Below are positions 1 to 55,266 of a DNA stretch of 64,000 nucleotides, in pieces. The first letter of the stretch is position 1, and each line of letters opens with the position of its first letter. The translations under genes and the position numbers were made by a program. The notes beneath the pieces are model-generated. The model was not told where the DNA came from. It searched no databases and worked only from the letters and a program-made list of their open reading frames with translations. Where the stretch lies: positions 34,613 through 98,612 of the IMG/VR virus record IMGVR_UViG_3300045988_079296; one strand, written 5' to 3'. This DNA is from a virus.

Positions 1-364
1 TGTACCCTTTATTCTTTTTCAAGAACTTTCTTACCCATTCAACCAACGCATCTTCAATCTCGGTTAATGTCTCACGTCCGAAGTATTGATTCAGGTATTT
101 ATAAGCATTTTCCAAGGTGACTCCCTTCGGGTATGCCTTATTATACCCGTAATAACTTTCATCCTTGAAATCAAGCTCCAAATGATGATACGGGATATTT
201 AAAAACTCAAATAGCTTCGCATCCTCCGCTACTCTCTTCTCATCATTCTCAACGTTCAAAACTTGAACTTCATATTCGGGGAAGAATAGTACATGAGAAC
301 AGCAGAATAAAGCATCGTCCGAATGCGGAGCTACTATGAGATATTTTTGTTTTATTTTTCCCAT
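1..364 (-). CDS. PIG-L/LmbE-family deacetylase-like protein, 5' part only (continues past the window start)
   Basis: Not in the ORF track because no stop lies in the window. Own translation from ATG 364-362 reads MGKIKQKYLIVAPHSDDALFCCSHVLFFPEYEVQVLNVENDEKRVAEDAKLFEFLNIPYHHLELDFKDESYYGYNKAYPKG... and stays open to position 1. LIVAPHSDDA resembles the AHPDD(E) zinc-site motif of PIG-L/LmbE deacetylases. The start overlaps the radical SAM stop by 13 nt. Confidence 0.45.
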   Translation of the reverse strand, partial: MGKIKQKYLIVAPHSDDALFCCSHVLFFPEYEVQVLNVENDEKRVAEDAKLFEFLNIPYHHLELDFKDESYYGYNKAYPKGVTLENAYKYLNQYFGRETLTEIEDALVEWVRKFLKKNKGY

Positions 365-1308
365 TTCCTTCTTACGATAATAGGAGATAAAAAGCCATCT
401 TTGTGCACACTTTGTGCTAACTTCTTGACCTCTGGAGTTATCTCTGGCAAAGTCTCTTGACCCGAACTATCAGGCAAGAACCCTACACGCATACTAATAT
501 TCGTACAACCACTACAAGGTCGGAAGTTACGACTGTAATTGTAGAGCATAATTCTCGCAGCTCGAAAACGTTCATGATTCCAAAGCTCTACAATCCCCAT
601 GTCGTTGATATTAGCAATCGGATATTCCCCACGGAAGTCATCGCAACATAAAGAAACGTTGCCATCGTATCGGAAAGCTAATTCACGGAAAGGCATAGCA
701 CAACGCTTGTTGTTATACGACTTATCCAACGGAGCTGCTGCACCGCAATGATTGGCAAGTTTACGTGTTATCTTGTTGTCCTCCTTAATCGGTGGCAATA
801 ACAATATTCTCGGTTTCTTGTTGTTAGTGTACAACGGTATTCCCTTTTCATAGAATACAACGTTCCACGCCCCTTCGGGAAGTTTATTTACAAAATTCCA
901 ATCTCCCTCGTCCGTATAACAATCCACGATAAGATTGTTTATTCCAGCATCGAAAAGGCTCTCAACATATTCCTCTGTATTCTCGGCTCTATTTGCCGCA
1001 TAACCGTTCGTGTACATATGTAAAATAGCATTCGGCAATTCCTCTCGGAATATCTTTACTATTTCCATAATCTTCGGATTCAACGTTGGCTCTCCATGCT
1101 GAGCGAATACTATTTTGCTATTCCAACCTGCTTTAGCAATCTCGCTCGCTATTCTCTTTGCGGTTTTGATACTCATGTGATTCCAAGGTTTCGTTCCTTT
1201 TTCACGCATACCTCTCAACCCACAGAAAGAGCATCCCAAATTACATCCTTCGGTTGGTTCAATTAGCACCGTGAACGGTGCTTGTTGTACAATTTTCTTT
1301 TTAGCCAT
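352..1308 (-). CDS. Radical SAM enzyme with SPASM/twitch-like C-terminal domain
   Basis: 318 aa. EPTEGCNLGCSFCG gives the CxxxCxxC radical SAM cluster motif near the N-terminus. The C-terminal Cys-rich block (CAMPF...VSLCCDDF...RPCSGC) is typical of auxiliary-cluster SPASM/twitch domains. Confidence 0.85.
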   Translation of the reverse strand: MAKKKIVQQAPFTVLIEPTEGCNLGCSFCGLRGMREKGTKPWNHMSIKTAKRIASEIAKAGWNSKIVFAQHGEPTLNPKIMEIVKIFREELPNAILHMYTNGYAANRAENTEEYVESLFDAGINNLIVDCYTDEGDWNFVNKLPEGAWNVVFYEKGIPLYTNNKKPRILLLPPIKEDNKITRKLANHCGAAAPLDKSYNNKRCAMPFRELAFRYDGNVSLCCDDFRGEYPIANINDMGIVELWNHERFRAARIMLYNYSRNFRPCSGCTNISMRVGFLPDSSGQETLPEITPEVKKLAQSVHKDGFLSPIIVRRKWEK

Positions 1309-8994: not shown

Positions 8995-9330
8995 TCAATT
9001 TACCTCTTTATAATTGTTTAGTGCTTCTTCAATCTTTTGGGTGACCGCTCCGTCAAAGATAATATACTTTGCTTCCAAAGTCTCGTGGATGATTATGGCT
9101 TCGTCCAAATACTCTATCAAAACCGTATTATCATCCAAACTCGTTATCTCTGGAGCTGTCTCCTTGATATTATCCCATAGAAGTTGAAAAGCTCGGATGC
9201 TTAGAGCATCTTCCATGATTGTATTAGACAGATACTTCATTCGGGGTACAGAAGTATCAATTTCAGCAGCCGCCAGTTGTAAATCGGTCTCCAACGGCTC
9301 TTGCATTGTTGTTAGCTTCTTTGAATACAT
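8995..9330 (-). CDS. hypothetical protein
   Basis: The tracked ORF 8995-9360 begins at TTG. The first ATG is 9330, 4 nt after the upstream TAG. Confidence 0.6.
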   Translation of the reverse strand: MYSKKLTTMQEPLETDLQLAAAEIDTSVPRMKYLSNTIMEDALSIRAFQLLWDNIKETAPEITSLDDNTVLIEYLDEAIIIHETLEAKYIIFDGAVTQKIEEALNNYKEVN

Positions 9331-9334
9331 AACG

Positions 9335-10438
9335 CTATAATGATTTTGTTTTCGGTACAAATTTACTTCGTTGCTTACCCTCTCCGATAATCATCTTCCA
9401 ATACTTCTGAAATTCGCAAAGCCACATTTCAATTTGGTGAAGAGTTATATTGGGCTCATCTGACGTGTAATATTCTCCGTCCTCCATATCCCAATACAGA
9501 TAGGGAAAGTTTTCTTTTTTCTCTTCGCTTATTCTTCCCAACCATTCTTCTGCCAAATCTCTTAACCAATATATGGCAGGTTTTTGTTCTCGGAGCGTAG
9601 AAAGGTTTGGATATATGAGACGAATGCCGATACTACACCCTGGCCCAACGTTCGTGAAGTCGTTTTGGTCAAACTTCATAAAACGTCTGCCCGTGTACTT
9701 CGGTATATATGTGAAGTCCTGATAGAACTCATGAGCAATAAAATCGGCTACCGCAGGGAACGTTTTCAAGTACTCAATAATCTCTTCTGGCTTCTTAGCG
9801 GTCATCACCTTAGCAATGAGCTTATCCATGTTCTTATGCAGATGCGGAATAACAACCCTTGTATAGCAATAGTCTCTCGGTTGACCAGGTGTTGCTTGAG
9901 AGTTAATCAAGTAAGCAGTTGTATAAGGGTTTTGCCCCGAACTACGAACGCCAGCAATGAAACGGCTGAACTCGTCCTCATCGTATTCATCCCAATCGGG
10001 TATGCCGTTCTTCCACTTTGTAGCCGCAATCAATTCGTCTTTCGATTGAGCTTGTTTTAATCCCGATTTCACTGGTGCTCCAAATAAGCTCGGTTGAAGT
10101 GTTTTTCCTTTCGGCTCAAACATAAACGTTTCGGGGCAATTAAAGAAGCGGAAAACCATCATCTTCCAAACCAAGTTCTTCAACGACAAACTTTCGTCAA
10201 GAAGAATGTTCTTGATTTGCCATTGACTATTTCGGTCAAGCTCCCGATACACGTTGGTGAACTTTGACTCTTGAAAAATCTTGTTCTTTGTCCAAGGTCG
10301 TTCTTTCCCGTCTATGAACCTCCGTTTCCATATAAGCTGGCGTTCATACATAGTCTCAAAGAACAAACGCAAATGAGGCTCGTACACCTCAAGATTTTCG
10401 TCAGGTAACTTATCGTACCATGCTGCATTTTCAAACAT
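9335..10438 (-). CDS. alpha-glutamyl/putrescinyl-thymine pyrophosphorylase (aGPT-Pplase)-like DNA base hypermodification protein
   Basis: 367 aa. The N-terminal block YERQLIWKRRFIDGKERPWTKNKIFQESKFTNVYRELDRNSQW matches my recollection of the aGPT-Pplase family signature (PWT...F.N.YRE.DR). Not verified by a profile search. Confidence 0.6.
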   Translation of the reverse strand: MFENAAWYDKLPDENLEVYEPHLRLFFETMYERQLIWKRRFIDGKERPWTKNKIFQESKFTNVYRELDRNSQWQIKNILLDESLSLKNLVWKMMVFRFFNCPETFMFEPKGKTLQPSLFGAPVKSGLKQAQSKDELIAATKWKNGIPDWDEYDEDEFSRFIAGVRSSGQNPYTTAYLINSQATPGQPRDYCYTRVVIPHLHKNMDKLIAKVMTAKKPEEIIEYLKTFPAVADFIAHEFYQDFTYIPKYTGRRFMKFDQNDFTNVGPGCSIGIRLIYPNLSTLREQKPAIYWLRDLAEEWLGRISEEKKENFPYLYWDMEDGEYYTSDEPNITLHQIEMWLCEFQKYWKMIIGEGKQRSKFVPKTKSL

Positions 10439-10439
10439 C

Positions 10440-10781
10440 TTATAAACTTTTAGTATTTAATCTCATAAAAAACTCTCGTTTGGCTTCCACATTACCCTTC
10501 TTCATTAAGTTCAAAAGAACTTTCTTGGGCATCTTTCGGAACGGTCTTTGTTTAGCGTTAATCAACTTCACAAACCTAACATCTAAGTTACAGCGTTGCG
10601 GGTTGCCGCTGGGGTAGAACTTACTGCATATGTTTGTAGATAACAAAGGACAATACCAATTGCCGTGGAAGCCAGTTATTTCAAATTTGGTTTTGCCCCA
10701 AACGCTATCATCGCTGTCTCGGACAATATCTCCATTCTTAAAATATTTCCAAACTTTTTGGTCTGTATTCTCGCTCGGCAT
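10440..10781 (-). CDS. hypothetical protein (113 aa)
   Basis: Minus-strand ORF starting 2 nt after the upstream stop. No recognisable motif. Confidence 0.6.
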   Translation of the reverse strand: MPSENTDQKVWKYFKNGDIVRDSDDSVWGKTKFEITGFHGNWYCPLLSTNICSKFYPSGNPQRCNLDVRFVKLINAKQRPFRKMPKKVLLNLMKKGNVEAKREFFMRLNTKSL

Positions 10782-10879: not shown

Positions 10880-11533
10880 TTAAAAACGGAATGTAGCAAA
10901 CTGTTTAGGAGTCAACTCATACTCTTTTTCATCCTTTAGGCTTTGCACTACTCGGCATGCTTCCAAATCTACCATGACGTTACATACCGCTCGAACGCAA
11001 TCATTGTATTGGTTACGTGCCATTGCTTCGGCTTCGGTTTTAGCAAAATTGTACTTCTTTTCCATTTCGGCTGTGTGTTCGGCAGATAGAGTTTCAACCA
11101 TTCGGTCATCCGTTGATTTCATTCTCATTTCCTCCCAATCGTAAACCTTGAATGGAACTTCGATACGCAAGTCATCGGTCCACCAAGGGTTGATGTCCTT
11201 AGTAGGAGCTTGACCGCAAGATTTCAAACACTCGTTAGCTTCCTTTTTCTTAGTAGCTAATGCAGCATTAAGTTCGGGAATGAGGATGTCTGTAACGTTC
11301 TTCTTAATCTCCTTTCCAGTCTTGGTGACTTTGATATCACCTCCGTACTGAATGGCGTTCATAACGTCAGATTTCTCAATTTCTTGGGCAGCTACATCAA
11401 ACGGGTTGGCATCGCTTTCTCCCTTTTGAATAGCTTCCTCCGAAGGCTGATTAAGGTCACCTTCAAAACCTTTCAAGAGGTGAGCATGTTGTTTCGCTCT
11501 CGCTCCGTGAATTGCATCATGAATTTCGTTCAT
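10880..11533 (-). CDS. hypothetical protein (217 aa)
   Basis: ATG-initiated ORF followed by a hairpin/U-run terminator. Helical, E/K/A-rich. Confidence 0.65.
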   Translation of the reverse strand: MNEIHDAIHGARAKQHAHLLKGFEGDLNQPSEEAIQKGESDANPFDVAAQEIEKSDVMNAIQYGGDIKVTKTGKEIKKNVTDILIPELNAALATKKKEANECLKSCGQAPTKDINPWWTDDLRIEVPFKVYDWEEMRMKSTDDRMVETLSAEHTAEMEKKYNFAKTEAEAMARNQYNDCVRAVCNVMVDLEACRVVQSLKDEKEYELTPKQFATFRF

Positions 11534-16248: not shown

Positions 16249-16441
16249 ATTCCTCAATTTTTCTTTGTTTATCTTCTTCGGTCATATTGCAAGTGCGTCC
16301 TATAATGTTACTTGATAATATCTTCACGCTTCCATCAGGCTGCTTTTGCATCATAGTTTCAACGGCAAAGTCGTTACCTTGACCGAAGTCAACCCCGATA
16401 AACAAACCTTTGCCGTTGGTGAATTGTTGGAACTGTCTCAT
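16202..16441 (-). CDS. hypothetical protein (79 aa)
   Basis: ATG shares one base with the dUTPase stop (TAATG overlap). Overlaps the next gene by about 47 nt. Confidence 0.55.
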   Translation of the reverse strand: MRQFQQFTNGKGLFIGVDFGQGNDFAVETMMQKQPDGSVKILSSNIIGRTCNMTEEDKQRKIEEYERLCENEAVEQKST

Positions 16442-16896
16442 TATTTCATTCCCGTGTGTCCATAACCTCCCGCACCTCTCTCGGAGTCACGCTGAAAGCC
16501 TTCTACTGGTTTCCATGTAGCTTGGAATAAACCGCCTGAGCCGTTGCACACCGCCTGAGCAATTCTCTCCCCTCTCTTAACAACAAACGTCTCGTTGCTG
16601 AGATTAATCAAAGGCACTCCAACTTCTCCTTGGTAGTCGGCATCTATTGTGCCAGGTGCGTTGATAACTGTTATGCCTTTCTTAACAGCCAAACCGCTTC
16701 TCGGTCTTATCTGCATTTCGGCATCCGTAGGTAGCTCAACATATACTCCCGTAGGAACAACGCAACGTTCCATGGGTTGAAGTACAATGTCATTAACGTT
16801 TGCAGCATACAAATCTGCTCCTGCCGAAAGTTCGGTTGCATAATAGGGAAGTTTACCAAAACCTTTGATAATAATTCTTACGTCTCTCTTTTCCAT
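16441..16896 (-). CDS. dut: dUTP diphosphatase (trimeric dUTPase)
   Basis: AGADLYA, RPRSGLAVKKGI, GTIDADYQGEV, GERIAQ and a C-terminal RGAGGYGHTG P-loop-like motif are the classical dUTPase motifs 1-5. Confidence 0.95.
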   Translation of the reverse strand: MEKRDVRIIIKGFGKLPYYATELSAGADLYAANVNDIVLQPMERCVVPTGVYVELPTDAEMQIRPRSGLAVKKGITVINAPGTIDADYQGEVGVPLINLSNETFVVKRGERIAQAVCNGSGGLFQATWKPVEGFQRDSERGAGGYGHTGMK

Positions 16897-25459: not shown

Positions 25460-25885
25460 TTATTTTGCCATTCTCACAACTATCTCCACATCTGAAAAGT
25501 CGCTTGCAAAAGAACAAGAACGAATATCATAGGAATGACTTCCAGTGTTAATCGTAGTAAGCACCAAAGGATAATAAGTCAACACGCTTAACTCGGTAGG
25601 AGCGGATGTCAAAGCATAAGACGTTACAAGGTTTGAAGCTGCCTGACCTCCGAAGCGTTCAGATACTATTTTAACCGTCATAGGAACGTCAGAGGATGCT
25701 TGTATGCTCACTTCTGTCTCCGTCTTTAAGGAGATTATGAGATTCAAGTTTCCTATCTTAGCATTGATGGGAGCGGTCTTTAAGTTTCCGTTTAAAACTA
25801 TCGGCTTGTAACTTACAAAGTCCAATCCTCCTTCTACTCCATTGTCAATCTCTTCTCCCGTATATGCGCTTTGATAATCTTCCAT
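25460..25885 (-). CDS. hypothetical beta-rich protein (virion-type?)
   Basis: 141 aa, S/T/V-rich, followed by a strong terminator. Confidence 0.6.
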   Translation of the reverse strand: MEDYQSAYTGEEIDNGVEGGLDFVSYKPIVLNGNLKTAPINAKIGNLNLIISLKTETEVSIQASSDVPMTVKIVSERFGGQAASNLVTSYALTSAPTELSVLTYYPLVLTTINTGSHSYDIRSCSFASDFSDVEIVVRMAK

Positions 25886-26043
25886 TATTGTTTAACTTTA
25901 AATTTGTTTCCTCCTTTTGTCGCAAAAGTTTCACCGCTGGAAGTTTTCAAATATCCCTTTCCTTCAACTGGCGGAGAAGTGCTTGGTTTGAGTTTTGTGC
26001 TTCCGCTCAACTTACCAATTGAACCTAACTTACCAACTCTCAT
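25885..26043 (-). CDS. small Lys/Gly/Ser-rich protein (52 aa, below the track cutoff)
   Basis: Own translation: MRVGKLGSIGKLSGSTKLKPSTSPPVEGKGYLKTSSGETFATKGGNKFKVKQ*. The ATG is 4 nt after the upstream TGA. TAATG overlap with the next start. Confidence 0.5.
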   Translation of the reverse strand: MRVGKLGSIGKLSGSTKLKPSTSPPVEGKGYLKTSSGETFATKGGNKFKVKQ

Positions 26044-26047
26044 GGCA

Positions 26048-26311
26048 TCAATACATTACGTTAATAGAACCCGAAACAAGTTCCAATTTAGAGTCAATGT
26101 AGAAATATTCCGTTTCTCCTTCGGATATTACTACACCATCACCTGGCTGGTTTTCCAAGCGAATAACGGCATCACCGCCAGTCGCCTTAACTCGGATAAA
26201 CTGATTGGGAGTTATTTGCTCTACAACTCCTGCTGCGCTTACGTTCAAACCCATACTTAGACGGGCAACTTGTACGGAGCGACTGTTTGCATCTACATAA
26301 AGACTTTTCAT
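26048..26311 (-). CDS. hypothetical protein (87 aa)
   Basis: The tracked ORF starts at TTG 26347, inside the upstream terminator. ATG 26311 (MKSLYVDANSRSV...) is preceded by TTTGTAAAAAT. Confidence 0.6.
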   Translation of the reverse strand: MKSLYVDANSRSVQVARLSMGLNVSAAGVVEQITPNQFIRVKATGGDAVIRLENQPGDGVVISEGETEYFYIDSKLELVSGSINVMY

Positions 26312-26323
26312 ATTTTTACAAAT

Positions 26324-26361
26324 TAAAAAAGGAGTATAAAACCCCAATGTTGTTATACTCC
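26324..26361 (-). terminator. Rho-independent terminator after the lipoprotein gene
   Basis: Arms ggagtataa (26331-26339) and ttatactcc (26353-26361), 9 bp. Followed by TTTTTT on the minus strand. Confidence 0.75.
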
Positions 26362-26372
26362 TTTAATAGTTG

Positions 26373-26615
26373 TTATTGTTTGACTCTTATCCTGGGCGGG
26401 TTATGCTCGTCCAGCGTGTTCCCGTCCTTCCTCATTTCGTACCGAAGTGTATCAAAACCCAATTCCACACGTTCATATTTCCAAACTCTCATAATTACGG
26501 TTGTATCTGTTCTTGATACTTCCTCTTTGTACGTTACTTTCGTTGGGTCTTTGTCGGAACATTCCGTCAGGAATAAGAACCCAAGAAAGCATAAACATAG
26601 AAAATACATTTTCAT
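26373..26615 (-). CDS. putative lipoprotein
   Basis: Signal peptide MKMYFLCLCFLGFLFLTEC, then CSDKD. The acidic residues just after the Cys resemble the Bacteroidota surface-lipoprotein export signal. Confidence 0.5.
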   Translation of the reverse strand: MKMYFLCLCFLGFLFLTECSDKDPTKVTYKEEVSRTDTTVIMRVWKYERVELGFDTLRYEMRKDGNTLDEHNPPRIRVKQ

Positions 26616-26773
26616 AGGTCGTGTATTTTTAATCCGTTAATAACTTCCCAACCTTCGGAGCGGAGTTTGTCTTCAACTTTGTCTCGGCTCTCCGCTTCCA
26701 CTTCGGTCTTTTGTAACTTGATTTGTTCTTTTCGGCTTCTACTACCGAAAAATTTGACTTTAAACTTCTTCAT
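26612..26773 (-). CDS. small charged protein (53 aa, below the track cutoff)
   Basis: Own translation: MKKFKVKFFGSRSRKEQIKLQKTEVEAESRDKVEDKLRSEGWEVINGLKIHDL*. ATGA overlap with the lipoprotein start. Confidence 0.45.
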   Translation of the reverse strand: MKKFKVKFFGSRSRKEQIKLQKTEVEAESRDKVEDKLRSEGWEVINGLKIHDL

Positions 26774-26987
26774 ATTCTACATCAATTGCTCTTGCTTTCA
26801 TTTTGTCCAAACTCGCTCTTTGTTCTGGTGTGAACCGCTTCTTCGGCTCTCCTTCCCATTTCTCTTCGGGTTGAGTATTATCGTAGTAAGTACGATTGCG
26901 CCAAGTCTCTCTTGACATGTTATCACTCATTCCCGAAGTCCTGTACATAAATTCAAACCATTCATCTATCCAATCGAACCTTCCCAT
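26760..26987 (-). CDS. hypothetical protein (75 aa)
   Basis: ATG-initiated minus-strand ORF overlapping the upstream gene end by 26 nt. Confidence 0.55.
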   Translation of the reverse strand: MGRFDWIDEWFEFMYRTSGMSDNMSRETWRNRTYYDNTQPEEKWEGEPKKRFTPEQRASLDKMKARAIDVEYEEV

Positions 26988-28209
26988 ATTTAAACCATTT
27001 ATTTTCGATAACTTTGATGTAATAATCCCTTACCCAAGTTGGACTTGCCGTTGCGTAGAAAGCATCGCTATCGCAGAAGTTATCCCAAAACGGCTTCCCG
27101 AACCCGATACGGACAAACTCTTCATCCAATATATCCTCACAACGTGTTTGCATTACATGCCATCCTTCTTCTCCAAGGGTCATAGACTTCAAGCGGTCTA
27201 TAATGCGTGACAAACTGCCCCCTTGAACCCGTTCAGTGTATAAGATAGGACTTACAATGCCCATAGCAGCAAGATAGTCGGTGAGGTTCATTCCCGTTGG
27301 TATCTCGTCTTTAAAGCATCCTACGGGCACGGAAAGCTCTTGTAATGACGCAATCTTATTGTCCCATACTTCCTTATTCAAGTTTATCCATTCCCGAACG
27401 TCTGGACGGGTATCGTAAATGTTGAAATAGCGTTCTTTCTCTGCTGCATTTGGGTAAATAACCAAGTACGGTATTCCCAAGGCTTTGAATATCTTCCTTG
27501 CTTCGGGATGCATGGCACAAACGATAATTCTGCCCCGTTGAAGCTCCTTCGATATTTTGCGAGCATAGTTGATTGGAAACTCTGGATTGATGATACCCTT
27601 CTCTTTGTCTAAGTAGTAATGTTCTGAAAAGAAACAATCTACAAATCGGCTATCTACGTTTGTCAAGAATGTTTTACCAATCCCTGGATAACCACATATT
27701 GCTCTGATAGTGCCTTGCTTAAACGCTTCTTGTATAGCAAGACGGTTTGTTGTTACTTCCATAATAATGCTATGATTAAAAAGGATTGCTAAAACTCCGC
27801 ATAATATCCATGCTTTCTTATCGGAGCTTTTAACTACATGTTGAATGTGCGCTCCTGCCGCTTTGAGTTCTTGAACCTCTTCATCCAAGAATAGGTCATT
27901 ACCATTATTCCACTTGATTATTGCTTTTCTACAAGCATCGTTCAACGGCTTCATAAGTTCTTCGGGATAACCATATGAAAGGTCATAACGGGCATCGCCT
28001 TTGTGTACTTCGCCAAACATAGCTTGACCAGTCTCTGGGCTTCCTCTGAATTGCCATTCCGTTCTTAGAAAGCCAGGCACTGTTTTAGCGGTTATGAAAT
28101 AAATACCATCCTCATCATCCATAGATACTTTGGTAATGATAGGAGCGGTTGAGAAGTATTTCTGTAATATCTTCTCCGCTTGTTCTTTGTTACAATGTAT
28201 TACTGACAT
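26962..28209 (-). CDS. P-loop NTPase / nucleotide-kinase-like protein with N-terminal extra domain
   Basis: Walker A ICGYPGIGKTFL in mid-protein, followed by a kinase-like core (IIVCAMHPEARKIF...GIPYLVIYPN). ATG 28209 is preferred over the tracked TTG 28257 and is preceded by TTGTAAAAC, whose TAA is the upstream stop. Confidence 0.55.
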   Translation of the reverse strand: MSVIHCNKEQAEKILQKYFSTAPIITKVSMDDEDGIYFITAKTVPGFLRTEWQFRGSPETGQAMFGEVHKGDARYDLSYGYPEELMKPLNDACRKAIIKWNNGNDLFLDEEVQELKAAGAHIQHVVKSSDKKAWILCGVLAILFNHSIIMEVTTNRLAIQEAFKQGTIRAICGYPGIGKTFLTNVDSRFVDCFFSEHYYLDKEKGIINPEFPINYARKISKELQRGRIIVCAMHPEARKIFKALGIPYLVIYPNAAEKERYFNIYDTRPDVREWINLNKEVWDNKIASLQELSVPVGCFKDEIPTGMNLTDYLAAMGIVSPILYTERVQGGSLSRIIDRLKSMTLGEEGWHVMQTRCEDILDEEFVRIGFGKPFWDNFCDSDAFYATASPTWVRDYYIKVIENKWFKYGKVRLDR

Positions 28210-34453: not shown

Positions 34454-34696
34454 TTATTTACAATATCCAAATCTCTTTTCTACATCCCACTGGGTGAGGT
34501 TACTTCTTACTTTGCCCCTCCCTAATTTCTTTCCGCAACAGCCACATCTACGTTCTTCCCAAAGGTCGTATCTGAGGTGATGCGTATAAGAACCTTTCTT
34601 GAGAACTTTGTACTTTGGCTTAGCATACTCCGTACATATATGCTCATAATACGGATGCTTGCACCAAAGACGTTTTATGTACTTCCAAAGTTTCAT
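34454..34696 (-). CDS. small Cys/His-rich protein
   Basis: ATG 34696 forms an ATGA overlap with the stop of the DUF6527-like frame. WCKHPYYEHIC ... RRCGCCGKKLG. Confidence 0.55.
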   Translation of the reverse strand: MKLWKYIKRLWCKHPYYEHICTEYAKPKYKVLKKGSYTHHLRYDLWEERRCGCCGKKLGRGKVRSNLTQWDVEKRFGYCK

Positions 34697-36413: not shown

Positions 36414-36668
36414 TTACGTTTTGTGATATTCTTTCTTTAATCGTAAACGACGCAAGTGTATTACTATTGCAGGATGCGTTGGTAATATAGGTTCATACTC
36501 TGATATACGAATAATTTCCCAATCATCTTTCTTATCTATTGCGTTAGCTATTGCGTAGCGTTTGAGTTTAGAGAAAAGAAAGATGCGGAACTCTTTTGTA
36601 TTGTCTTTTTTGAGCTCCGCAGTTTCGTCATAACTTAGAATGAGTTTCTTTAGTTTTGCTTCTGTCAT
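36414..36668 (-). CDS. hypothetical protein (84 aa)
   Basis: ATG-initiated ORF with an ATGA overlap upstream. Confidence 0.55.
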   Translation of the reverse strand: MTEAKLKKLILSYDETAELKKDNTKEFRIFLFSKLKRYAIANAIDKKDDWEIIRISEYEPILPTHPAIVIHLRRLRLKKEYHKT

Positions 36669-37249
36669 TTTCTTTTTAGAATATTTTCAAACTTCTTTCC
36701 GTATTTCTCGTAATAAGCAAGCATTTGTTCCAATCTTTGGGCGGGAACTCTTTTTGATTCTTCTCTCTCGGAATTTCTTTCAAAACAAAGCCATAAAGGA
36801 ACATCAAAGAAGCTCTTGTACTCTATTTCTACATAATCCCGATACTTAGAATTATCAATTGCTTTCTTTATCAATTCTGCTCCTGACGAATATATGTTTG
36901 TATCATCTACAATAACGTCCATGTGGTTACTTTGGTCTATTGCACAAACTGTTATCTTTCTCCGTATATCTTGAAGCATTGGCGGTTGAGGCAATTCCTT
37001 CCTTGCCGTCTCAACTATCTCTCTTTTTGTTAAGTCATCCGCAAGAGGTTTTAAAAGTTCCAACGCCAATTCCTTCGCTTCCTCAAATTGGTCTGCCGTT
37101 AGGGGTTGGCGAACACTACCTGCTTTGAAGGAAGGATAACGGCTGCAAGTCATCGAAGCTCTGTCAGACGTTATGCAAATTGTTATTGACCTCCCTTCTT
37201 CCTCGCATACAAAGAATTGATTATTTACATGATAATAAGTCTTTTCCAT
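36665..37249 (-). CDS. hypothetical protein
   Basis: ATG 37249 (MEKTYYHVNNQFF...) lies 2 nt after the upstream TAG. The tracked start 37414 overlaps 163 nt of the upstream gene. Confidence 0.6.
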   Translation of the reverse strand: MEKTYYHVNNQFFVCEEEGRSITICITSDRASMTCSRYPSFKAGSVRQPLTADQFEEAKELALELLKPLADDLTKREIVETARKELPQPPMLQDIRRKITVCAIDQSNHMDVIVDDTNIYSSGAELIKKAIDNSKYRDYVEIEYKSFFDVPLWLCFERNSEREESKRVPAQRLEQMLAYYEKYGKKFENILKRK

Positions 37250-37251
37250 AC

Positions 37252-37794
37252 CTACATTTTGTTTAATATTCCATATATTACTTTCGTTTTCAAATAACCT
37301 TGTATCTCCCTTTGATAATGATAACCATCTTCCAATGGCGTCAATTCTTTCGTAGGTAGGAGCTGGGTTGCCATAGCAAAGTCTATCTTTGGAAGTCCGC
37401 AACCGTTCAACCAACGCTCTATCTTATCCGATACCTCAGCCCAAACTCCACCTCGCTTCAAGAGGTCGTGAAACTCTTCTATCAGCATCCGCTTTGCTTC
37501 TTTGGTTTGGAGACTTCCCGACATACATACTTTCTTACCCCAAGGAGTGTCTTTCATTATGATTATCGCTTTCGGTCTTGCACTATTCGGACTAAAAAGC
37601 AATTTCCAATACTTTTCGTCATTGTAGAGCAACTTATCTACGTTCCGATATAAGAACCCTTCAGACGTTCCCGAATATGACTCAGAAAGCATTGTAATCA
37701 CTTCGTCAAGATATTTCCTTTTCTCGTACCGATTATTCAAAATGATTGAACTGGTCTCTCTCTCTCTCTCTCTTGACTCTTCAATTCTCGCCAA
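37252..37794 (-). CDS. hypothetical protein; may be the C-terminal part of a (GA)n-interrupted gene
   Basis: The tracked ORF starts at TTG 37794. The first ATG is only at 37692. The frame is open through the (GA)9 tract and would join ORF 37737-38723 if one GA unit were lost. Confidence 0.55.
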   Translation of the reverse strand: MARIEESRERERETSSIILNNRYEKRKYLDEVITMLSESYSGTSEGFLYRNVDKLLYNDEKYWKLLFSPNSARPKAIIIMKDTPWGKKVCMSGSLQTKEAKRMLIEEFHDLLKRGGVWAEVSDKIERWLNGCGLPKIDFAMATQLLPTKELTPLEDGYHYQREIQGYLKTKVIYGILNKM

Positions 37795-47675: not shown

Positions 47676-49037
47676 TTATTTCTTGCCGTTCAACTTACTG
47701 CGAATGTCCTTCATTGTAAGTTTTGCTTTTGGCTTTTCTTCTTCCTCATCGTCCTCTTCTTCGGTTTCATCTTCACCCTCTTCGTCAGAGTCATCCATGG
47801 CTTCTCGGATAGCTTCACGCAGGTCATCGTCTGACATAGACTTCTTAACCGATACTTCCAAACCTTGCTCTTTTATGTACTTCTTGAGCTCGCTTCTGTC
47901 CATATCGTCCAAGCCGTCATCCTCCGCTTCTGTTTCCTCTTCTTCGCTCTCTTCCTCTTCGTCATCATCTTCTTCCTCGTCCTCTGGCTCTTCTACTTTC
48001 TTTTTGCCCTTCGGAGCTGCTTTGGAAGATTTCTTGGCGGGTTTTTCTTCCTCTTCTTCATCATCGCTGTCGTCCTCATCTTCTTCCTCTTCTTTCTTGG
48101 AAGTCTTTTTGGACGTTACTTTCTTTGAGGTTTTCTTTTTTGGCTTTTCTTCTTCCTCATCGTCCTCTGCGTCATATTGGGCTTTCACCTCTTCTACGAT
48201 AGCCAACCAATCTTCGTCCTCGAACATTTCCAGTTCATGTTCTTCGTCAAAGTTCTGCAAGCCTTCCAAAGCACGTTCAAAGTCTCTCATGCCGTAGGTC
48301 GGGATAACCTCTGAAAGTGGTTTAAGGGTCATGAAATACTCAATTTCCTCGTCTGTAAGAGGTCTTGGAGATACCTTTTTGGGGAAGGTAGTTTCATAGT
48401 AATTTTCGCCCTTCTTCTTGTTCGGCTTCTTCATGTACTTAACCATGATTGGCAAACCTTCATCGGGGTCAGTGAACGGGTCAACTTCAATCGGCTCGTC
48501 CTCATCTTCGGAGAATGCAAGTTTGTTCATCTGGTCACGAACCATTTTCTTGAACTCCCACAATTTAGCTCTCAACTCTTCGTCAGCCACTACCTTATCA
48601 GCGTAGCACAACCAAGTGTACTGCGGGCTCAATGAATCTTGTCCTGAGAAGCATTCCAATTTGTCCGCATCCTTCTTCCACTTGTTCTTAGCGAACTTGA
48701 TGAACTCGGCGCAAATATCCTTCTCCGTACCTCCGTGAACTACGGAGTCAAGAACCGTTCCACGTCCTTGTTCGCCATCGTTGCGTTCGTAGGTTATCCA
48801 GTAACACTTCTTGGCTACATAGAAGTTTTCCTCACCAGGGTGACCAGGGAAGATACGAATTTTGATTGTCTTACCGTCCTCCAAGTTCAGATACTCGTTA
48901 CTTTGAACGCCAACCATTTCGTTGTCTTCGTCCACTACCTTCTTCAATTTCTTGATTGAAGTAGGTTTTAATGCGGCTCTTAAATCACCGCCTTTTGATG
49001 CATTTTTCTTTGCCATAGCTTTCTTAAAATCTACCAT
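47676..49037 (-). CDS. gp32-like ssDNA-binding protein with long acidic/basic C-terminal extension
   Basis: The N-terminal 280 aa follow the T4 gp32 layout (GKTIKIRIFPG..., KLWEFKKMVRDQMNKL, IEVDPFTDPDEGLPIMVKYMKK). The C-terminus is polyampholyte with a HeH/Rho-N-like module DRSELKKYIKEQGLEVSVKKSMSDDDLREAIREAM. Strong terminator downstream. Confidence 0.55.
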   Translation of the reverse strand: MVDFKKAMAKKNASKGGDLRAALKPTSIKKLKKVVDEDNEMVGVQSNEYLNLEDGKTIKIRIFPGHPGEENFYVAKKCYWITYERNDGEQGRGTVLDSVVHGGTEKDICAEFIKFAKNKWKKDADKLECFSGQDSLSPQYTWLCYADKVVADEELRAKLWEFKKMVRDQMNKLAFSEDEDEPIEVDPFTDPDEGLPIMVKYMKKPNKKKGENYYETTFPKKVSPRPLTDEEIEYFMTLKPLSEVIPTYGMRDFERALEGLQNFDEEHELEMFEDEDWLAIVEEVKAQYDAEDDEEEEKPKKKTSKKVTSKKTSKKEEEEDEDDSDDEEEEEKPAKKSSKAAPKGKKKVEEPEDEEEDDDEEEESEEEETEAEDDGLDDMDRSELKKYIKEQGLEVSVKKSMSDDDLREAIREAMDDSDEEGEDETEEEDDEEEEKPKAKLTMKDIRSKLNGKK

Positions 49038-49576: not shown

Positions 49577-49885
49577 TTATTCTTTTTCTTGTTCTTCTTT
49601 TTCCTCTTCTTCAAGAATGTGTAACCCGATAACGGCATAACCGATAATGTCCTTTAGAGTGTCTTGGATGCTCTCAAAATTCGGCTCTTCTCCCTTTAAT
49701 CGGTTTTCCACCATGTTTCTTAACCTTGATGTTTTGTCCCAAATATGAACCATGTTGCCGTTCATACCCAAATCAAAACTCGCTCCTTTGTAGTCTTTGT
49801 TTTTCTTTAACAAGATTTCAGTCATGCCATCAAAGATGCCATTGATACTTTCTCTCGTCATTTCTTCACCTTTCTTCTTACTCAT
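49577..49885 (-). CDS. DUF1599-like all-alpha protein (nucleotide-modification-associated family)
   Basis: KKNKDYKGASFDLGMNGNMVHIWDKTSRLRNMV matches the K..DYG...G....i.DK..R pattern I recall for DUF1599. Confidence 0.45.
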   Translation of the reverse strand: MSKKKGEEMTRESINGIFDGMTEILLKKNKDYKGASFDLGMNGNMVHIWDKTSRLRNMVENRLKGEEPNFESIQDTLKDIIGYAVIGLHILEEEEKEEQEKE

Positions 49886-50519
49886 CGTTAAATAAGTTTT
49901 TTAAATTATACAATTCGGTTATGTTAATCTCCACATCGGGGAAATTTATTTTCAAACTGTTTATAACAGCATCAACCGCTTTCGGGAAATTTTGTTTTGC
50001 TCTCTCCCATTGTTCATCCAATCCTCTATTACCCAATGAACGTTCTCTTTTCATATAGAAGTAAAGAGCCATCCAATCGCATAGTTTAGCGAACTTCTTT
50101 TCAGGCTCTGGGCAAGCGCAAACCATAGATAACATCATATTTGATGCATCGGTATCTGTTCCGTGTTCGTCTGTTTCCTTGAACTCCCTTAACGCTATAT
50201 GCTTTGATAGATTGTCAAGAACTCTTCTGACTTCCTCTCCGTTGTAGTCGTTATACTTAGTTTCATGGGACATATCCCGAAGTATCAATGCTTCATCCCA
50301 ATCGTGGAAGATAGCTCTTGAAACTACATCCAACTTAAACAATAATACCTTCGGGTCAATACTATGACCAAATACATCCTCCAATAAAACTCTTGCGAAT
50401 ACCGCATCTTTATAAGAGTGTTGACTCACGCTTTCTTCCTTGAAAACGTCCATTTCCTGCCACTGCTTAATATTATCAAGTCTGTGCAGATACTTACTTT
50501 TGATAATCTTGTTTAACAT
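49878..50519 (-). CDS. HD-domain phosphohydrolase (YfbR-like 5'-deoxynucleotidase-like)
   Basis: SVSQHSYKDAVFARVLL (His) and AIFHDWDEALILRDMSHETK (HD...E...D) fit the HD superfamily metal site. Preceded by the conserved leader motif. Confidence 0.6.
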   Translation of the reverse strand: MLNKIIKSKYLHRLDNIKQWQEMDVFKEESVSQHSYKDAVFARVLLEDVFGHSIDPKVLLFKLDVVSRAIFHDWDEALILRDMSHETKYNDYNGEEVRRVLDNLSKHIALREFKETDEHGTDTDASNMMLSMVCACPEPEKKFAKLCDWMALYFYMKRERSLGNRGLDEQWERAKQNFPKAVDAVINSLKINFPDVEINITELYNLKNLFNDE

Positions 50520-50521
50520 TT

Positions 50522-50537
50522 CAATTTGATTTACGAT
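50522..50537 (-). promoter_or_regulatory. conserved leader motif, variant (copy 5)
   Basis: Minus strand ATCGTAAATCAAATTG, 2 nt before ATG 50519. The TAA inside the motif is the dnaE stop codon. Confidence 0.45.
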
Positions 50538-53500: not shown

Positions 53501-54070
53501 TTTATCTTTTGAATAGTCCTTCGCTACCGTTATTGTTTCACCGATAACGGACTTCACGCCATACTTATCGCAGAAGGTCTGAAAGGATAACGCTCCAGCC
53601 AACGTATTTCGGTCACATATCCCCAACGCCTTAACTCCAACAAACTTTGCTTTCTTTGCCCATGTATCGCAACCTCCCGAACCATTCAATATTTCATATT
53701 CGGTATGTACACCAAGATGTGCAAAGTCCATTATGTACTCTTCGCTAATTTTACCAAGATACTTGAAGTCCAAGAATTGTGGCTTGAAGATAATTTCGTT
53801 GTATCGGTTTTTATCCTTCTTTATTCCCGAATAATAGAACTTGCTTCCAAATTCAAAGAGGATGTATTTGACTTTCCCCTCGTCCAGCATATCAAATTCT
53901 TCATCTGAAAGGATAAACCCAAAGTCCTCGTCAATTATTTTACCATCAAAAGGATGAAGATACAAAAAGTCTCCAACCTCTTCGATAGAGATAATATCAG
54001 AGCCGTCCAACGTTGACTCTGATATTACCATGTGATTATCTTCTATCCACTTTTGTAGATTTTCCGTCAT
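50531..54070 (-). CDS. dnaE: DNA polymerase III alpha subunit (DnaE-type, PHP domain)
   Basis: 1179 aa. PHP motifs HLGVHTEYEILNG and GICDRNTLAGA; palm GTGRGSVCGSLVAYCLHITDVDPLKYGLMFERFLN, MPDIDVDF, HPSAAII, FNKSHAAAYS. Confidence 0.95.
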   Translation of the reverse strand: MTENLQKWIEDNHMVISESTLDGSDIISIEEVGDFLYLHPFDGKIIDEDFGFILSDEEFDMLDEGKVKYILFEFGSKFYYSGIKKDKNRYNEIIFKPQFLDFKYLGKISEEYIMDFAHLGVHTEYEILNGSGGCDTWAKKAKFVGVKALGICDRNTLAGALSFQTFCDKYGVKSVIGETITVAKDYSKDKQNQETFELKFYILNYEGWKNLLLINKAVNVTYNGFIPESELLELGKGLVCVIPKESEFNYIKDDKKETIKLIAKYKKHFTRVYYQVDTVEFVSDNLFKKHLENIDTYICNYKKLLKPILINDSYYLDREMHELKGVINKVLGKAAPEAINQYFKTCGETFEEYSDWLEEVEPLFQTIVEGIENATLLVDKVDFKIPSGEKKLPAFEVDDAVGLFFDMVEKGANERLGHLPKKELAIYMKRLEIECNVIVPNDLVDYFMILWDIINWCKKRGIMVGTGRGSVCGSLVAYCLHITDVDPLKYGLMFERFLNETRVSGERAKSADSMPDIDVDFPTEHRDAVKNYIKEKYGYDYTCSIGTYTRMKLKTCLKDFGKVKGIPFDTMNKLTKDIDDQIEYTWGDLLEYASKSKALFKFVQENPDIVHLTKYGMLQCKAASVHPSAAIIVPKHTVDGTNRPIDIWEWMPVKMIDGVLVSEWEGKYIDKSGFLKEDILGLNQLDKFKNMEVLIQKNYGKKIDWNAIPLDDEETFKYFKRGWNEDVFQFGTQGLMNYSRQVKPDTLAQLIAMTALFRPGPMELNAHSDFADIKNGKKKPTYDFGMEEITAETFGLYVYQEQIMKGVVVGGLTEVESDILRTTIKKKDVKTLSSYGEKFKKGYSELLRKNKIEKPDEYAEKVWAKLLAFSGYGFNKSHAAAYSIMSYWSQYMKVNYPLEFWTTALQFSKEGEVPYRLAELKKTGAEIEIRPPDVNFSAQTFTCDPKEQRIFFSLTKIKDVGEKVVPYIIEEREKGGKFFSLEEFVERVPSKVNKKVIERLIVAGAFDIVENLKNPRDRKKLLQWFAEYKKADIAKEYQTEEANKNSFWVFEQKRLTGFGEVDYETMIRDAIPNKRVAKLYVNDFEFANTKEGREATIAGKLIYYQERQIKNGTMVSVNIDCNNTIIPVTLWPDAVDRLPENISEYKNRVVAICGRVKKDKFKNQKVLYSDERTKIYIIS

Positions 54071-55266
54071 AGCTTACCAAGATATTTATGCTTCATTGGT
54101 TTACTTAACCTTGCTGCAAAGAAGTTCTTTGCTAATATCGACATATCCCAACCGTCCGCACCTTCGGCTTCCAACAACTCAATCTCGGCAATAGCGGTCT
54201 TTCTTATCGCATCCTTTTCAAGAGCCGTTTTTGCAAGCGTCATTTTCTGCTTGTAGAGCACGTATATCTTCAAGAGCTGATAAACGTTATAAAAGTAAGT
54301 TGAAAACTCTTGTAGCTGCTTAATTTCATCTTGTACGTCAGTCTCTCCGTTCTTTACCCTCATAAGGTTTTCGATAACGATATTCAAGTGAGCATCTACC
54401 TCTCTGAGACGGTTGACCGCTACTTCGTGAGAGAACGCAAAGTCCATCGGTCTTGCTTCGGCTTCGGTTGCCTCATAGAGCGAATGACCCATGCCTTGTT
54501 GTTGGTATATCTCGTCCATCTTTTGAGCCGTACCATTCCAATCATAAATATGTAAGCTCTGGGAGTTGTGAGTTTGCGTTCCTAACTCAATACCTAAACA
54601 ACGGCACATTATCTCGGTAAGGAAGGAGAATTGGAATATGTTCGTAGGCAATCCCCAATGAAGGTCGTTACTTCGGTTTGCGATAGTAGTTATCAATTTG
54701 CCCTTCCGAACTTTCAACTTTATGAGGTCATTGCACGGTATATCCTTACTTTTTGCCCCAAGGTCAAAACTTGGATTCCAAATCGCCATTACAACTTGTC
54801 TGGTATTCATATTCTCGGATAACAAACGAACCGCATCTGCTACTTGGTCATATCCTTGAGCTGCCGTTACTCCGTTCTCATATTTATCCTCCGTCCGAAT
54901 ACCCCAGTGGCGAAGTCTGAACCCGTAAGGAGCGTGGAATGTTTTGCCATCATCAGAAAAGTCTTTCATTCGTGCGTTGAAGATTTCCAAAAATTCCAAA
55001 TCTTTTCTTCCTACGGCTATCCACATAGCTTCGGCAAGAAGGAAGAAGATGTTTATATCTCTTCCATAACCGCCAACACACCTCGCAATGGGATTGGTGA
55101 TAATAGTTTTGATGTCTAATAATTCTTTAGCATCCCCAGCACGGCTCTCTTCGCTTTCTTGGTTGTTCAAGATGTAGTTATTAATCACTGGATAGAGTGC
55201 TCCAAATTCCTCCACTTTTGCTACTCCGTAGTCAGGCAGGAAACAATTTGTCTTTGGTAGTCCCAT
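54067..55266 (-). CDS. divergent thymidylate-synthase-fold enzyme (dUMP hydroxymethylase candidate) with about 130-aa C-terminal extension
   Basis: ThyA-fold blocks YGFRLRHWG, YDQVADAVRLL, RQVVMAIWNPSFDL...DIPCNDL (catalytic Cys), NRSNDLHWGLPTNIFQFSFL, SLHIY. Asn in PTN suggests uracil rather than cytosine specificity. ATGA overlap with dnaE. Confidence 0.75.
   Translation of the reverse strand: MGLPKTNCFLPDYGVAKVEEFGALYPVINNYILNNQESEESRAGDAKELLDIKTIITNPIARCVGGYGRDINIFFLLAEAMWIAVGRKDLEFLEIFNARMKDFSDDGKTFHAPYGFRLRHWGIRTEDKYENGVTAAQGYDQVADAVRLLSENMNTRQVVMAIWNPSFDLGAKSKDIPCNDLIKLKVRKGKLITTIANRSNDLHWGLPTNIFQFSFLTEIMCRCLGIELGTQTHNSQSLHIYDWNGTAQKMDEIYQQQGMGHSLYEATEAEARPMDFAFSHEVAVNRLREVDAHLNIVIENLMRVKNGETDVQDEIKQLQEFSTYFYNVYQLLKIYVLYKQKMTLAKTALEKDAIRKTAIAEIELLEAEGADGWDMSILAKNFFAARLSKPMKHKYLGKL

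Follow-up and report, generated by a model that had tools for sequence, protein, structure and literature searches.

A clade-1 aGPT-Pplase gene and a predicted 5-hmdU nucleotide pathway in a Bacteroides-phage-related genome with no recognisable 5-hmdU DNA kinase or amino acid:DNA transferase gene

Results

The gene at 9335-10438 encodes a clade-1 aGPT-Pplase

We analysed a 64,000-nucleotide stretch of viral DNA (positions 34,613 to 98,612 of the IMG/VR record IMGVR_UViG_3300045988_079296; hereafter the window), in which an initial annotation had singled out the gene at 9335-10438 as a likely member of the alpha-glutamyl/putrescinyl-thymine pyrophosphorylase (aGPT-Pplase) family and had proposed that the phage hypermodifies thymidine in its DNA. 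The gene exists as described: it is a 367-amino-acid open reading frame (ORF) that runs from ATG to stop on the minus strand (9335..10438) between the genes for the large terminase subunit (TerL) and the portal protein, and the string quoted from its product, ...YERQLIWKRRFIDGKERPWTKNKIFQESKFTNVYRELDRNSQW, is found in the N terminus. A profile search, the check named with that proposal, gave an above-cutoff match to the aGPT-Pplase superfamily in the form of Pfam PF18723 (171.4 bits against a cutoff of 25, E = 3.4e-50, in two stretches, the better of which spans model positions 94-278 of 281). PHROG 2396 (phrog_2396) matched residues 20-359 (E = 6.8e-47), and an NCBIfam scan of the protein gave no match. 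Because the PF18723 and PHROG 2396 matches are very strong, the family match is not due to chance.

The Pfam copy that we used names PF18723 "HMUDK_hel, 5-hmdU DNA kinase, helical domain" (5-hmdU, 5-hydroxymethyldeoxyuridine), and this name was tied to the clades of the literature by scanning reference proteins with the same Pfam library. M6 gp51 matched PF18724 ("ADDT, amino acid:DNA transferase") and M6 gp54 matched PF18748. The proteins that matched PF18723 were M6 gp55, the C-terminal half of SP10 gp186, the homolog from the Bacillus phage YungSlug and gp129 of the ViI-like Salmonella phage Guerrero (annotated "Pplase1 ... clade 1"); PF18723 also matches proteins labelled aGPT-Pplase clade 1 in GenBank and BFVD records. 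In BLASTP comparisons, the window protein aligned with the clade-1 paralog M6 gp55 (E = 1e-13) but not significantly with the clade-2 protein M6 gp51 (E = 2.3), and neither PF18724 (no match at E ≤ 1) nor a purpose-built amino acid:DNA transferase (AADT) profile matched it. Because the protein aligns with gp55 and not with gp51, it is, by its sequence, a member of clade 1, which makes it a paralog of the AADTs and not itself one. This family call is secure, and the proposed superfamily membership is borne out by PF18723, by the gp55 alignment and by structural matches in BFVD. The family had also been credited with attaching amines or amino acids to the base; that activity was shown for clade 2 (PF18724) and not for the PF18723 clade.

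Compared with the clade-1 members of cultured phages (M6 gp55, Guerrero gp129, the C-terminal part of SP10 gp186 and PhiW-14 C9DG43), the window protein is only 22-27% identical, and it has a full-length profile match and all of the invariant residues. A megablast search for close nucleotide relatives among deposited phages found none, and a sequence search of the PDB with the protein and the clade-1 profile gave nothing meaningful, only a spurious match to MakB. The clade-1 family comprises 2,342 representative clusters at E ≤ 1e-3; the identical protein occurs on at least 22 contigs, and the clusters of close homologs hold hundreds of members.

Conserved residues and predicted fold of the clade-1 protein

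Eight residues of the window protein (R33, N62, R65, D68, F233, G267, C341 and K345) are conserved in 90 of 90 diverse homologs and are also invariant across an alignment of M6 gp55, SP10 gp186C, the ViI-like protein and the YungSlug protein; the first four fall inside the N-terminal block that the initial annotation had quoted. Glu337 is kept in 85 and Glu342 in 88 of the 90 homologs, and a GPG loop is kept in at least 90% of them. In the C-terminal helix, E337-x3-C341 has the same spacing as the clade-2 catalytic motif E-T-x-x-C, which is invariant (E222/T223/C226 in 15599 and E243/T244/C247 in M6). The metal ligands E222/T223 and the conserved Cys226 of 15599 and the nucleophile Cys247 of M6/PaMx11 all fall on this motif (PMC11472151, PMC13458397). 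The position of the motif's Thr is occupied by Met338 in the window protein and mostly by His across the clade-1 family; clade 2 also has the invariant residues D22, D24, P25, Y27, R97, R98 and R101. The two motifs are superposed by hhalign with marginal statistics (P = 0.033, Prob 1.5%).

An AlphaFold2 model of the protein is all-alpha (predicted local distance difference test score (pLDDT) 91.7, predicted template-modelling score (pTM) 0.90) and includes a lineage-specific insertion of ~30 amino acids (residues ~109-137) with low pLDDT. In a Foldseek search of BFVD, this model matched SP10 gp186 (E = 2e-13, query TM-score (TMq) 0.71), phiRSL1, PhiW-14 and a "Pplase1 clade 1" entry (TMq 0.55-0.71 for clade 1). 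The AADTs were the next-best fold class after clade 1, with a probability of 0.96-0.98 but TM-scores of only 0.35-0.46. The top PDB folds were weak and comprised QNG1/DUF2419, PaMx11 gp46 (rank 2-4 of 350,542) and local helix-hairpin-helix (HhH) matches to OGG1 and AlkA; these sub-threshold matches were used as orientation only. The modelled protein is thus a distinct branch of the HhH-glycosylase-like assemblage, and the conserved motif suggests that the Cys/Glu chemistry is probably retained. With the AADTs (M6 gp51, PaMx11 gp46/PUGT, ViI gp247, PhiW-14 gp109 and SH-Ab 15599 Pplase2), the clade-1 protein shares an all-alpha, HhH-glycosylase-related fold and a C-terminal helix with E-x3-C. 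It differs from them in that it has no significant sequence match to any of these proteins, in that Met338 replaces the Thr of the E-T metal site and in that the window genome is without the partner kinase.

A predicted pre-replicative 5-hmdU pathway

Several further genes that the initial annotation had listed as parts of the pathway were confirmed by Pfam matches. At 54067..55266 on the minus strand lies a gene for a ThyA-fold enzyme of 399 amino acids (PF00303, 5.5e-24), a predicted dUMP hydroxymethylase (5-hmdUMP synthase). Among phage proteins it is most similar to the SP10 dUMP hydroxymethylase (39% identity, E = 3e-48), M6 gp58 (E = 9e-38) and ViI-like enzymes, whereas canonical phage thymidylate synthases reach only 1e-6 to 1e-9. 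Diagnostic positions of the ThyA family were taken from PMC13326640 and located in a MAFFT alignment that included an E. coli ThyA sequence; the statements made here are at the level of motifs only. The homolog retains the catalytic Cys; Asn at N177 indicates specificity for dUMP rather than dCMP, and Asp at D169 indicates that the protein is not a 5-hydroxy-C synthase. D-I-P-C stands where ThyA reads L143-A-P-C (the register was counted from the Cys, because the MAFFT alignment has a gap there); the acidic residue three before the Cys is common to SP10, M6 and YungSlug and is a hydroxymethylase signature. The best matches and the diagnostic residues thus support a dUMP-hydroxymethylase-like assignment.

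The other three genes, all on the minus strand, encode a dUTPase (16441..16896; PF00692, 1.1e-25), an HD-domain YfbR-like 5'-deoxynucleotidase that is a candidate dTMP depleter (49878..50519; PF12917, 2.5e-13) and a DUF1599 protein, Pfam's "nucleotide modification associated domain 1" (49577..49885; PF07659, 3.1e-6; phrog_1485). M6 gp59, whose gene adjoins that of the M6 hydroxymethylase, matches PF12917 as the window HD protein does. Taken together, the ThyA homolog, dUTPase, HD and DUF1599 genes are most simply read as a 5-hmdU nucleotide pathway. The genes for the ThyA homolog, the polymerase, the HD protein and the DUF1599 protein are mutually adjacent, and the clade-1 gene lies by the portal gene.

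The polymerase, encoded directly downstream of the ThyA homolog (50531-54070, minus strand), is a 1179-amino-acid replicative enzyme of the PolIII-alpha type (PHP, DNA_pol3_alpha, finger and HHH_6 domains), which is unusual for a phage. Two paralogous, extremely acidic proteins without a Pfam match (47676-49037, 453 amino acids; 55399-56715, 438 amino acids; both on the minus strand) bracket this PolIII-alpha/ThyA/HD/DUF1599 block and share the motif DRSELK.[YF]IKE..LE[IV]SVKKS.SDDD[IL]RE.IREAM.

The known partner enzymes have no recognisable gene

All window ORFs of at least 45 amino acids were scanned against Pfam, some directly and others concatenated with coordinate maps. The window corresponds, in reverse complement, to the first 64 kb of an ENA scaffold of 98,610 bp, and the remaining ~34 kb were reconstructed from relatives: the next 10 kb were taken from another scaffold with identical proteins (L012; L numbers denote the individual scaffolds and loci compared), and the last ~24 kb came from an IMG/VR relative of ~82% nucleotide identity, which closes the circle onto the window's other end. 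Neither the family of the kinase that acts on 5-hmdU DNA (5-HMUDK; PF18748) nor the AADT family PF18724 had a match in the window ORFs or the reconstructed remainder. Searches for a cryptic kinase, AADT, pyridoxal phosphate (PLP), radical S-adenosylmethionine (SAM) or Nmad5 protein with M6 and SP10 queries (phmmer, hmmsearch and tblastn) were negative, with the M6, SP10 and L200 controls detected; the same result was obtained with the kinase, AADT and methyltransferase of the same-family locus L200 and with profiles derived from them, again with positive controls. No tailoring gene of the PLP decarboxylase, SplB-like radical SAM, flavin adenine dinucleotide (FAD) lyase or acetyltransferase type was found in the window or the remainder, and no glycosyltransferase was found in the phage genome. 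The known pathway that the initial annotation had expected is thus incomplete in this phage: the 5-HMUDK and the AADT were undetected anywhere in the genome, and kinase, AADT and tailoring enzymes are without a recognisable gene. The parts that are present are scattered, as had been noted, over ~54 kb, all on the minus strand.

The candidates put forward for the missing steps were considered individually. The gene annotated as P-loop kinase-like does have an invariant Walker A motif (GYPGIGKT) and a weakly nucleoside monophosphate (NMP)-kinase-like fold, but it belongs to no Pfam family. Its ORF encodes 431 amino acids, of which residues ~162-431 form a conserved unit (26962..27774, minus strand; phrog_4182, of unknown function) that is a candidate hmdUMP kinase or unrecognised base kinase; its homologs, of 237-298 amino acids, likewise have no Pfam family. 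The AlphaFold2 model has a core pLDDT of 70-88 and an overall pLDDT of 56, and the folds that rank highest are those of guanylate, adenylate, gluconate and thymidylate kinases, with no match at E ≤ 1e-3. As a 5-HMUDK this ORF was rejected and left unassigned, given that it has no similarity to any 5-HMUDK, a weak model and a generic NMP-kinase-like fold. Its N-terminal ~161 codons (28257-27775) have a pLDDT below 50, and almost all homologs start near residue 162-166; translation probably starts inside the ORF, unless the upstream part is an element of its own. ORF 36665-37414 was also rejected as a kinase: its match to AAA_33 is sub-threshold (C-terminal part, E = 5.6e-4, 20.7 against 27 bits), and it has no Walker A motif. 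Neither ORF is callable as a 5-hmdU DNA kinase.

The region 1-1308, annotated as encoding tailoring-type enzymes, does contain a radical SAM/SPASM gene (352..1308, minus strand; PF04055 and PF13186). The enzyme is of the SPASM type and without significant similarity to M6 gp53 (E = 0.073), and its gene is present in 8 of the 79 related loci described below, as befits an accessory gene; it probably stands outside the modification system. The partial ORF at 1-351 (minus strand) has a sub-threshold PIG-L-like N terminus; in L012 (10945-11631), the protein that follows the radical SAM gene is complete at 228 amino acids and begins with a PIG-L/LmbE-like "APHSDDALF" sequence (E = 0.065). The pair sits between the head and tail modules, and on the grounds of the radical SAM gene's occurrence in 8 of 79 loci, its lack of significant gp53 similarity and the PIG-L E value of 0.065 it was rejected as a source of tailoring enzymes.

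The clade-1 gene in related loci

We compared 79 IMG/VR loci that carry a clade-1 gene, at 37-90% identity. A block of FEN, u217, u113, clade-1, u121 and portal genes is conserved across these loci. In the window, the conserved unknowns u113 (10440-10781, 113 amino acids) and u217 (10880-11533, 217 amino acids) lie directly upstream of the clade-1 gene, and the small conserved unknown u121 (8995..9360) lies directly downstream, all on the minus strand. The first two are syntenic in 54 and 51 of the 79 loci, respectively, and have no match in Pfam or PHROG; together they occupy the slot that in L200 carries the kinase, AADT and methyltransferase. L200 belongs to the same phage family (portal E = 3e-188) and encodes, in a row, a kinase, an AADT, an FkbM methyltransferase, the clade-1 protein and the portal. 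The L200 kinase is a P-loop, thymidylate-kinase-like protein with a weak PF18748 match (E = 0.0047) and has homologs in L214, L215, L204 and L167; the L200 AADT matches PF18724 at 26.9 bits against a cutoff of 26.2.

An FkbM methyltransferase gene (PF05050) directly abuts the clade-1 gene in 16 loci, including L138 (11116-12165), and FkbM genes also adjoin it at L200:2848-3546 and L214:3516-4232. In the closest relatives (~90% identity), the FkbM gene is inserted between the clade-1 gene and u121, a position at which the window is cleanly without it. A class-I methyltransferase gene flanks the clade-1 gene in L203 and in L205-L213, and in the latter it also has genes for a ThyA homolog and a dUTPase at most 3 kb away. 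These contexts indicate that the clade-1 gene is embedded in a variable DNA-modification island of which the window represents the minimal form.

L205-L213 form a separate lineage of ~50-kb contigs with the clade-1, class-I SAM methyltransferase, dUTPase and short ThyA homolog genes in a row (for example, L205:9896-14114). Their ThyA homolog carries a dCMP-type Asp at N177 and reads D-T-P-C up to the Cys, which suggests that clade 1 may also tie to a modified-cytosine pathway. In L203, a protein with an S-adenosylmethionine-synthetase N-domain is encoded nearby.

Discussion

M6 gp51 was shown by Lee et al. 2021 to be a glycine:DNA transferase, and M6 gp54 is an experimentally proven 5-hmdU DNA kinase (PMC8989533); every demonstrated transferase (M6 gp51, PaMx11 gp46, ViI gp247, PhiW-14 gp109 and SH-Ab 15599 Pplase2) belongs to clade 2. 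Clade-1 aGPT-Pplases accompany every characterised thymidine-hypermodifying phage, yet the literature that we found assigns them no role. The window gene is a further member of this known and biochemically unsolved family, in a gene-set arrangement that already has precedent.

We would give even chances to the reading that 5-hmdU replaces T at the nucleotide level and that the clade-1 enzyme then processes the base in DNA. In such a pathway, the ThyA homolog would make 5-hmdUMP, and the dUTPase would provide dUMP and prevent the entry of dUTP into DNA; depletion of dTMP may fall to the HD nucleotidase, and the P-loop NMP-kinase-like protein may help to phosphorylate 5-hmdUMP, so that the phage would replicate with 5-hmdU instead of T. 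The clade-1 enzyme would act after replication on the DNA polymer, where the base would be flipped out and the invariant Cys341 would attack C6; Glu337, at the position of a clade-2 metal ligand, would help the C5 substituent to leave, and the resulting exocyclic methylene would be resolved by a nucleophile or hydride. With no recognisable kinase, the clade-1 enzyme must either act on 5-hmdU that is not activated or depend on an activating enzyme that escaped recognition. DNA derived from 5-hmdU is likely in this phage, with T, 5-hmdU and a new adduct all candidates for the final base. A more specific version, in which clade 1 acts alone, with neither kinase nor AADT, and converts 5-hmdU into an undescribed thymidine derivative through Cys341 and loss of the hydroxyl, while relatives elaborate the base with FkbM or with kinase and AADT, strikes us as unlikely; if true, it would give clade 1 its first function and provide a kinase-independent route to hypermodified thymidine. 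The thymidine hypermodification originally proposed is thus partly supported: the clade-1 gene and the predicted 5-hmdU arm are in place, but a recognisable kinase, AADT and tailoring enzymes are not.

Several observations weigh against a post-replicative role for the clade-1 enzyme on 5-hmdU DNA. M6 gp55 was left out of the minimal in vitro reconstitution without effect (PMC8989533), the need for ViI gp160 is left open in the literature, and our literature search found no activity assigned to any clade-1 protein. Phages outside the four known hypermodifying groups, such as phiRSL1, Aeromonas phage 31 and Microbacterium phage Lucky3, have clade-1 homologs too, so a clade-1 gene alone may be a weak predictor. 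We know of no precedent for an aGPT-Pplase fold acting on unphosphorylated 5-hmdU. The catalytic role given to Cys341 comes solely from motif correspondence, hhalign connects the sequences of clades 1 and 2 only marginally (the P and Prob values given above), and Foldseek found no match at E ≤ 1e-3 among the 350,542 PDB chains. The clade-1 gene and the ThyA homolog are ~44 kb apart and so provide no evidence of clustering within the window genome, and ~24 kb of the genome were checked only in the relative at 82% nucleotide identity.

On the canonical pathway, a divergent phage kinase (for example, that encoded at 26962-27774) would phosphorylate 5-hmdU, and the clade-1 enzyme would attach an amine or amino acid to give hypermodified thymidine. 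SP10, which makes alpha-glutamylthymine, has its kinase fused to the clade-1 domain, with no second aGPT-Pplase paralog detected and a negative AADT profile in its 11-kb locus, so clade 1 may itself act as a transferase; against this, no report describes such an activity for clade 1. YungSlug has its kinase and clade-1 genes close together. The window likewise holds a P-loop protein with an NMP-kinase-like fold, but this protein resembles PF18748 and the M6, SP10, L200, L214, L204 and L167 kinases in Walker A only, and its gene is 17 kb from the clade-1 gene. The weak PF18748 score of the L200 kinase shows that divergent kinases can be missed; still, no window ORF was significant against PF18748, M6 gp54, the SP10 kinase, the L200, L214, L204 and L167 kinases or their profile, and the pathway is further weakened by the absence from window and remainder of any PLP, FAD, acetyltransferase or SplB-type radical SAM tailoring gene. 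We regard the canonical route as improbable. A comparably doubtful alternative is that no hypermodification takes place: 5-hmdU (as in SPO1) or ordinary T would be packaged, and the clade-1 protein would restore thymine or recognise 5-hmdU DNA non-catalytically. The invariant Cys, the two conserved Glu and the conserved GPG loop argue for catalysis over binding alone, although Pfam treats PF18723 as the helical part of the kinase and the window is without every known partner enzyme. As for restoration, SP10, PhiW-14, M6 and ViI turn part of their 5-hmdU into thymine after replication, by an enzyme not named in the literature found; clade 1 is the sole component common to these four phages without an assigned role, and M6 gp51 with borohydride gives thymidine through the same methylene intermediate (PMC8989533). 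The clade-1 protein has no recognisable reductant-binding domain, however, and the methyltransferases, kinase and AADT that adjoin it in relatives look like base elaboration rather than restoration of T.

It is very unlikely, in our judgement, that the gene is unrelated to base modification and encodes a small terminase or packaging protein or a host-DNA glycosylase-like protein, with the ThyA homolog being an ordinary thymidylate synthase. The ThyA homolog clusters with the enzymes of SP10 and M6 and has the signature residues of a hydroxymethylase, and across lineages the clade-1 gene adjoins genes for ThyA homologs, dUTPase, kinase, AADT and methyltransferases. What speaks for an unrelated function is a weak match to phrog_800 "terminase small subunit" (3.8e-11), the annotation of a homolog in Klebsiella phage FKP14 (L002:5917-7110) as a small terminase, the position of the window gene between TerL and portal, and the weak fold resemblance to QNG1, OGG1 and AlkA. 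The small-terminase reading was rejected: RefSeq applies the label "terminase small subunit" to M6 gp54 (L003:13686-14249), the proven kinase, and a mis-annotation has thus probably been propagated. The phrog_800 match is limited to profile positions 324-472 of 511, as might be expected of a model built on fusions of kinase and clade 1. The same label is carried by phrog_800 and by the clade-1 genes of some Klebsiella phages.

Returning to a 5-hmdU pathway with a clade-1 step on the polymer, cultured phages show three configurations: kinase, AADT and clade 1 (M6, ViI and PhiW-14); kinase and clade 1 with no clade-2 paralog detected (SP10 and YungSlug); and clade 1 with a hydroxymethylase but no kinase or AADT (PhiJL001, first 50 kb). 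The window phage falls in the third, and its arrangement thus has precedent. It shares with M6, the ViI-like phages, SP10 and PhiW-14 the presence of clade 1 and a dUMP-hydroxymethylase-type ThyA homolog in one genome; it differs from M6, ViI and PhiW-14 in having neither a PF18748 kinase nor a clade-2 paralog, and from SP10 in having no kinase. Unlike the M6, ViI-like, SP10 and PhiW-14 phages, it is a Bacteroides-phage-related contractile-tailed gut phage of ~98 kb. According to PMC9599517, HTVC023P-type pelagiphages pair a thymidylate synthase homolog with Pplase1 and a 5'-deoxynucleotidase; the partner set reported names no kinase or clade-2 gene. With these pelagiphages, as described there, and with PhiJL001, the window phage shares the hydroxymethylase-like ThyA homolog, clade 1 and the 5'-deoxynucleotidase; the pelagiphage and PhiJL001 genes are grouped near PolA, often with one for a glucosyltransferase, whereas the window genes are 44 kb apart, the polymerase is of the PolIII-alpha type and no glycosyltransferase was found. 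With the SPO1-type "hmU phages" the window phage shares the predicted pre-replicative 5-hmdU route (hydroxymethylase, dUTPase and nucleotidase); SPO1 is reported to have no aGPT-Pplase homologs, and the presence of the clade-1 enzyme in the window suggests a further step on the polymer. PhiJL001 (L217:12271-16120) encodes clade 1 (gp18/19), a glucosyltransferase (gp22), an SPO1-like dUMP hydroxymethylase (gp24) and a dCMP deaminase, and could serve as an experimental model for clade-1-only systems.

By TerL, the closest cultured relatives, at 38% identity, are SJC03 and DAC16-23, both phages of B. thetaiotaomicron; a human-faecal phage contig comes next, and the host is probably a member of the Bacteroidota on this sequence evidence. 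The initial annotation knew of no characterised Bacteroidota phage with this chemistry; in line with this, the gene appears to be absent from the cultured Bacteroides phages of the phage collection, since none of the organism names given for the 399 phage records matched by the clade-1 protein contains "Bacteroides", and the counts imply that six Bacteroides phages lack it. The lineage is abundant in metagenomes, and one syntenic slot offers a natural experiment, holding clade 1 alone (the window), clade 1 with FkbM (the ~90% relatives) or kinase, AADT, methyltransferase and clade 1 (L200). If the DNA contains 5-hmdU or a derivative, this would bear on restriction evasion in Bacteroidota, on the recovery of phages by sequencing and cloning and on the supply of DNA-labelling enzymes. 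For annotation, a PF18723 match alone should not be taken to mean "amino-acid:DNA transferase", and the labels "terminase small subunit" and "kinase helical domain" look misleading for the clade-1 family.

Additional features of the window

The window has a G+C content of ~40% and a uniformly negative GC skew, and essentially all credible genes are on the minus strand. Besides the genes discussed above, it encodes a ResIII/DEAD helicase, DnaB, a primase, the PolIII-alpha-type polymerase, RecA, Mre11/Rad50-like proteins, two UvrD helicases, an extracytoplasmic function (ECF) sigma factor, HU, DEDDh and FEN exonucleases, the portal protein and TerL (the last by PHROG). The third of the genome outside the window is a module for lysis and the contractile tail (GH108, M23 peptidase, baseplate J, sheath initiator and GDSL tail protein). 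The stretch at ~25870-26915 is the sole one in which the longest ORFs are on the plus strand; these ORFs look spurious, and the region may therefore be non-coding or regulatory. GIY-YIG/SegE-type homing-endonuclease genes vary in presence among the near-identical contigs L006-L011 (corresponding to window ~11.5-18.6 kb); they adjoin the TerL/dUTPase and FEN genes, and the window copy is without them.

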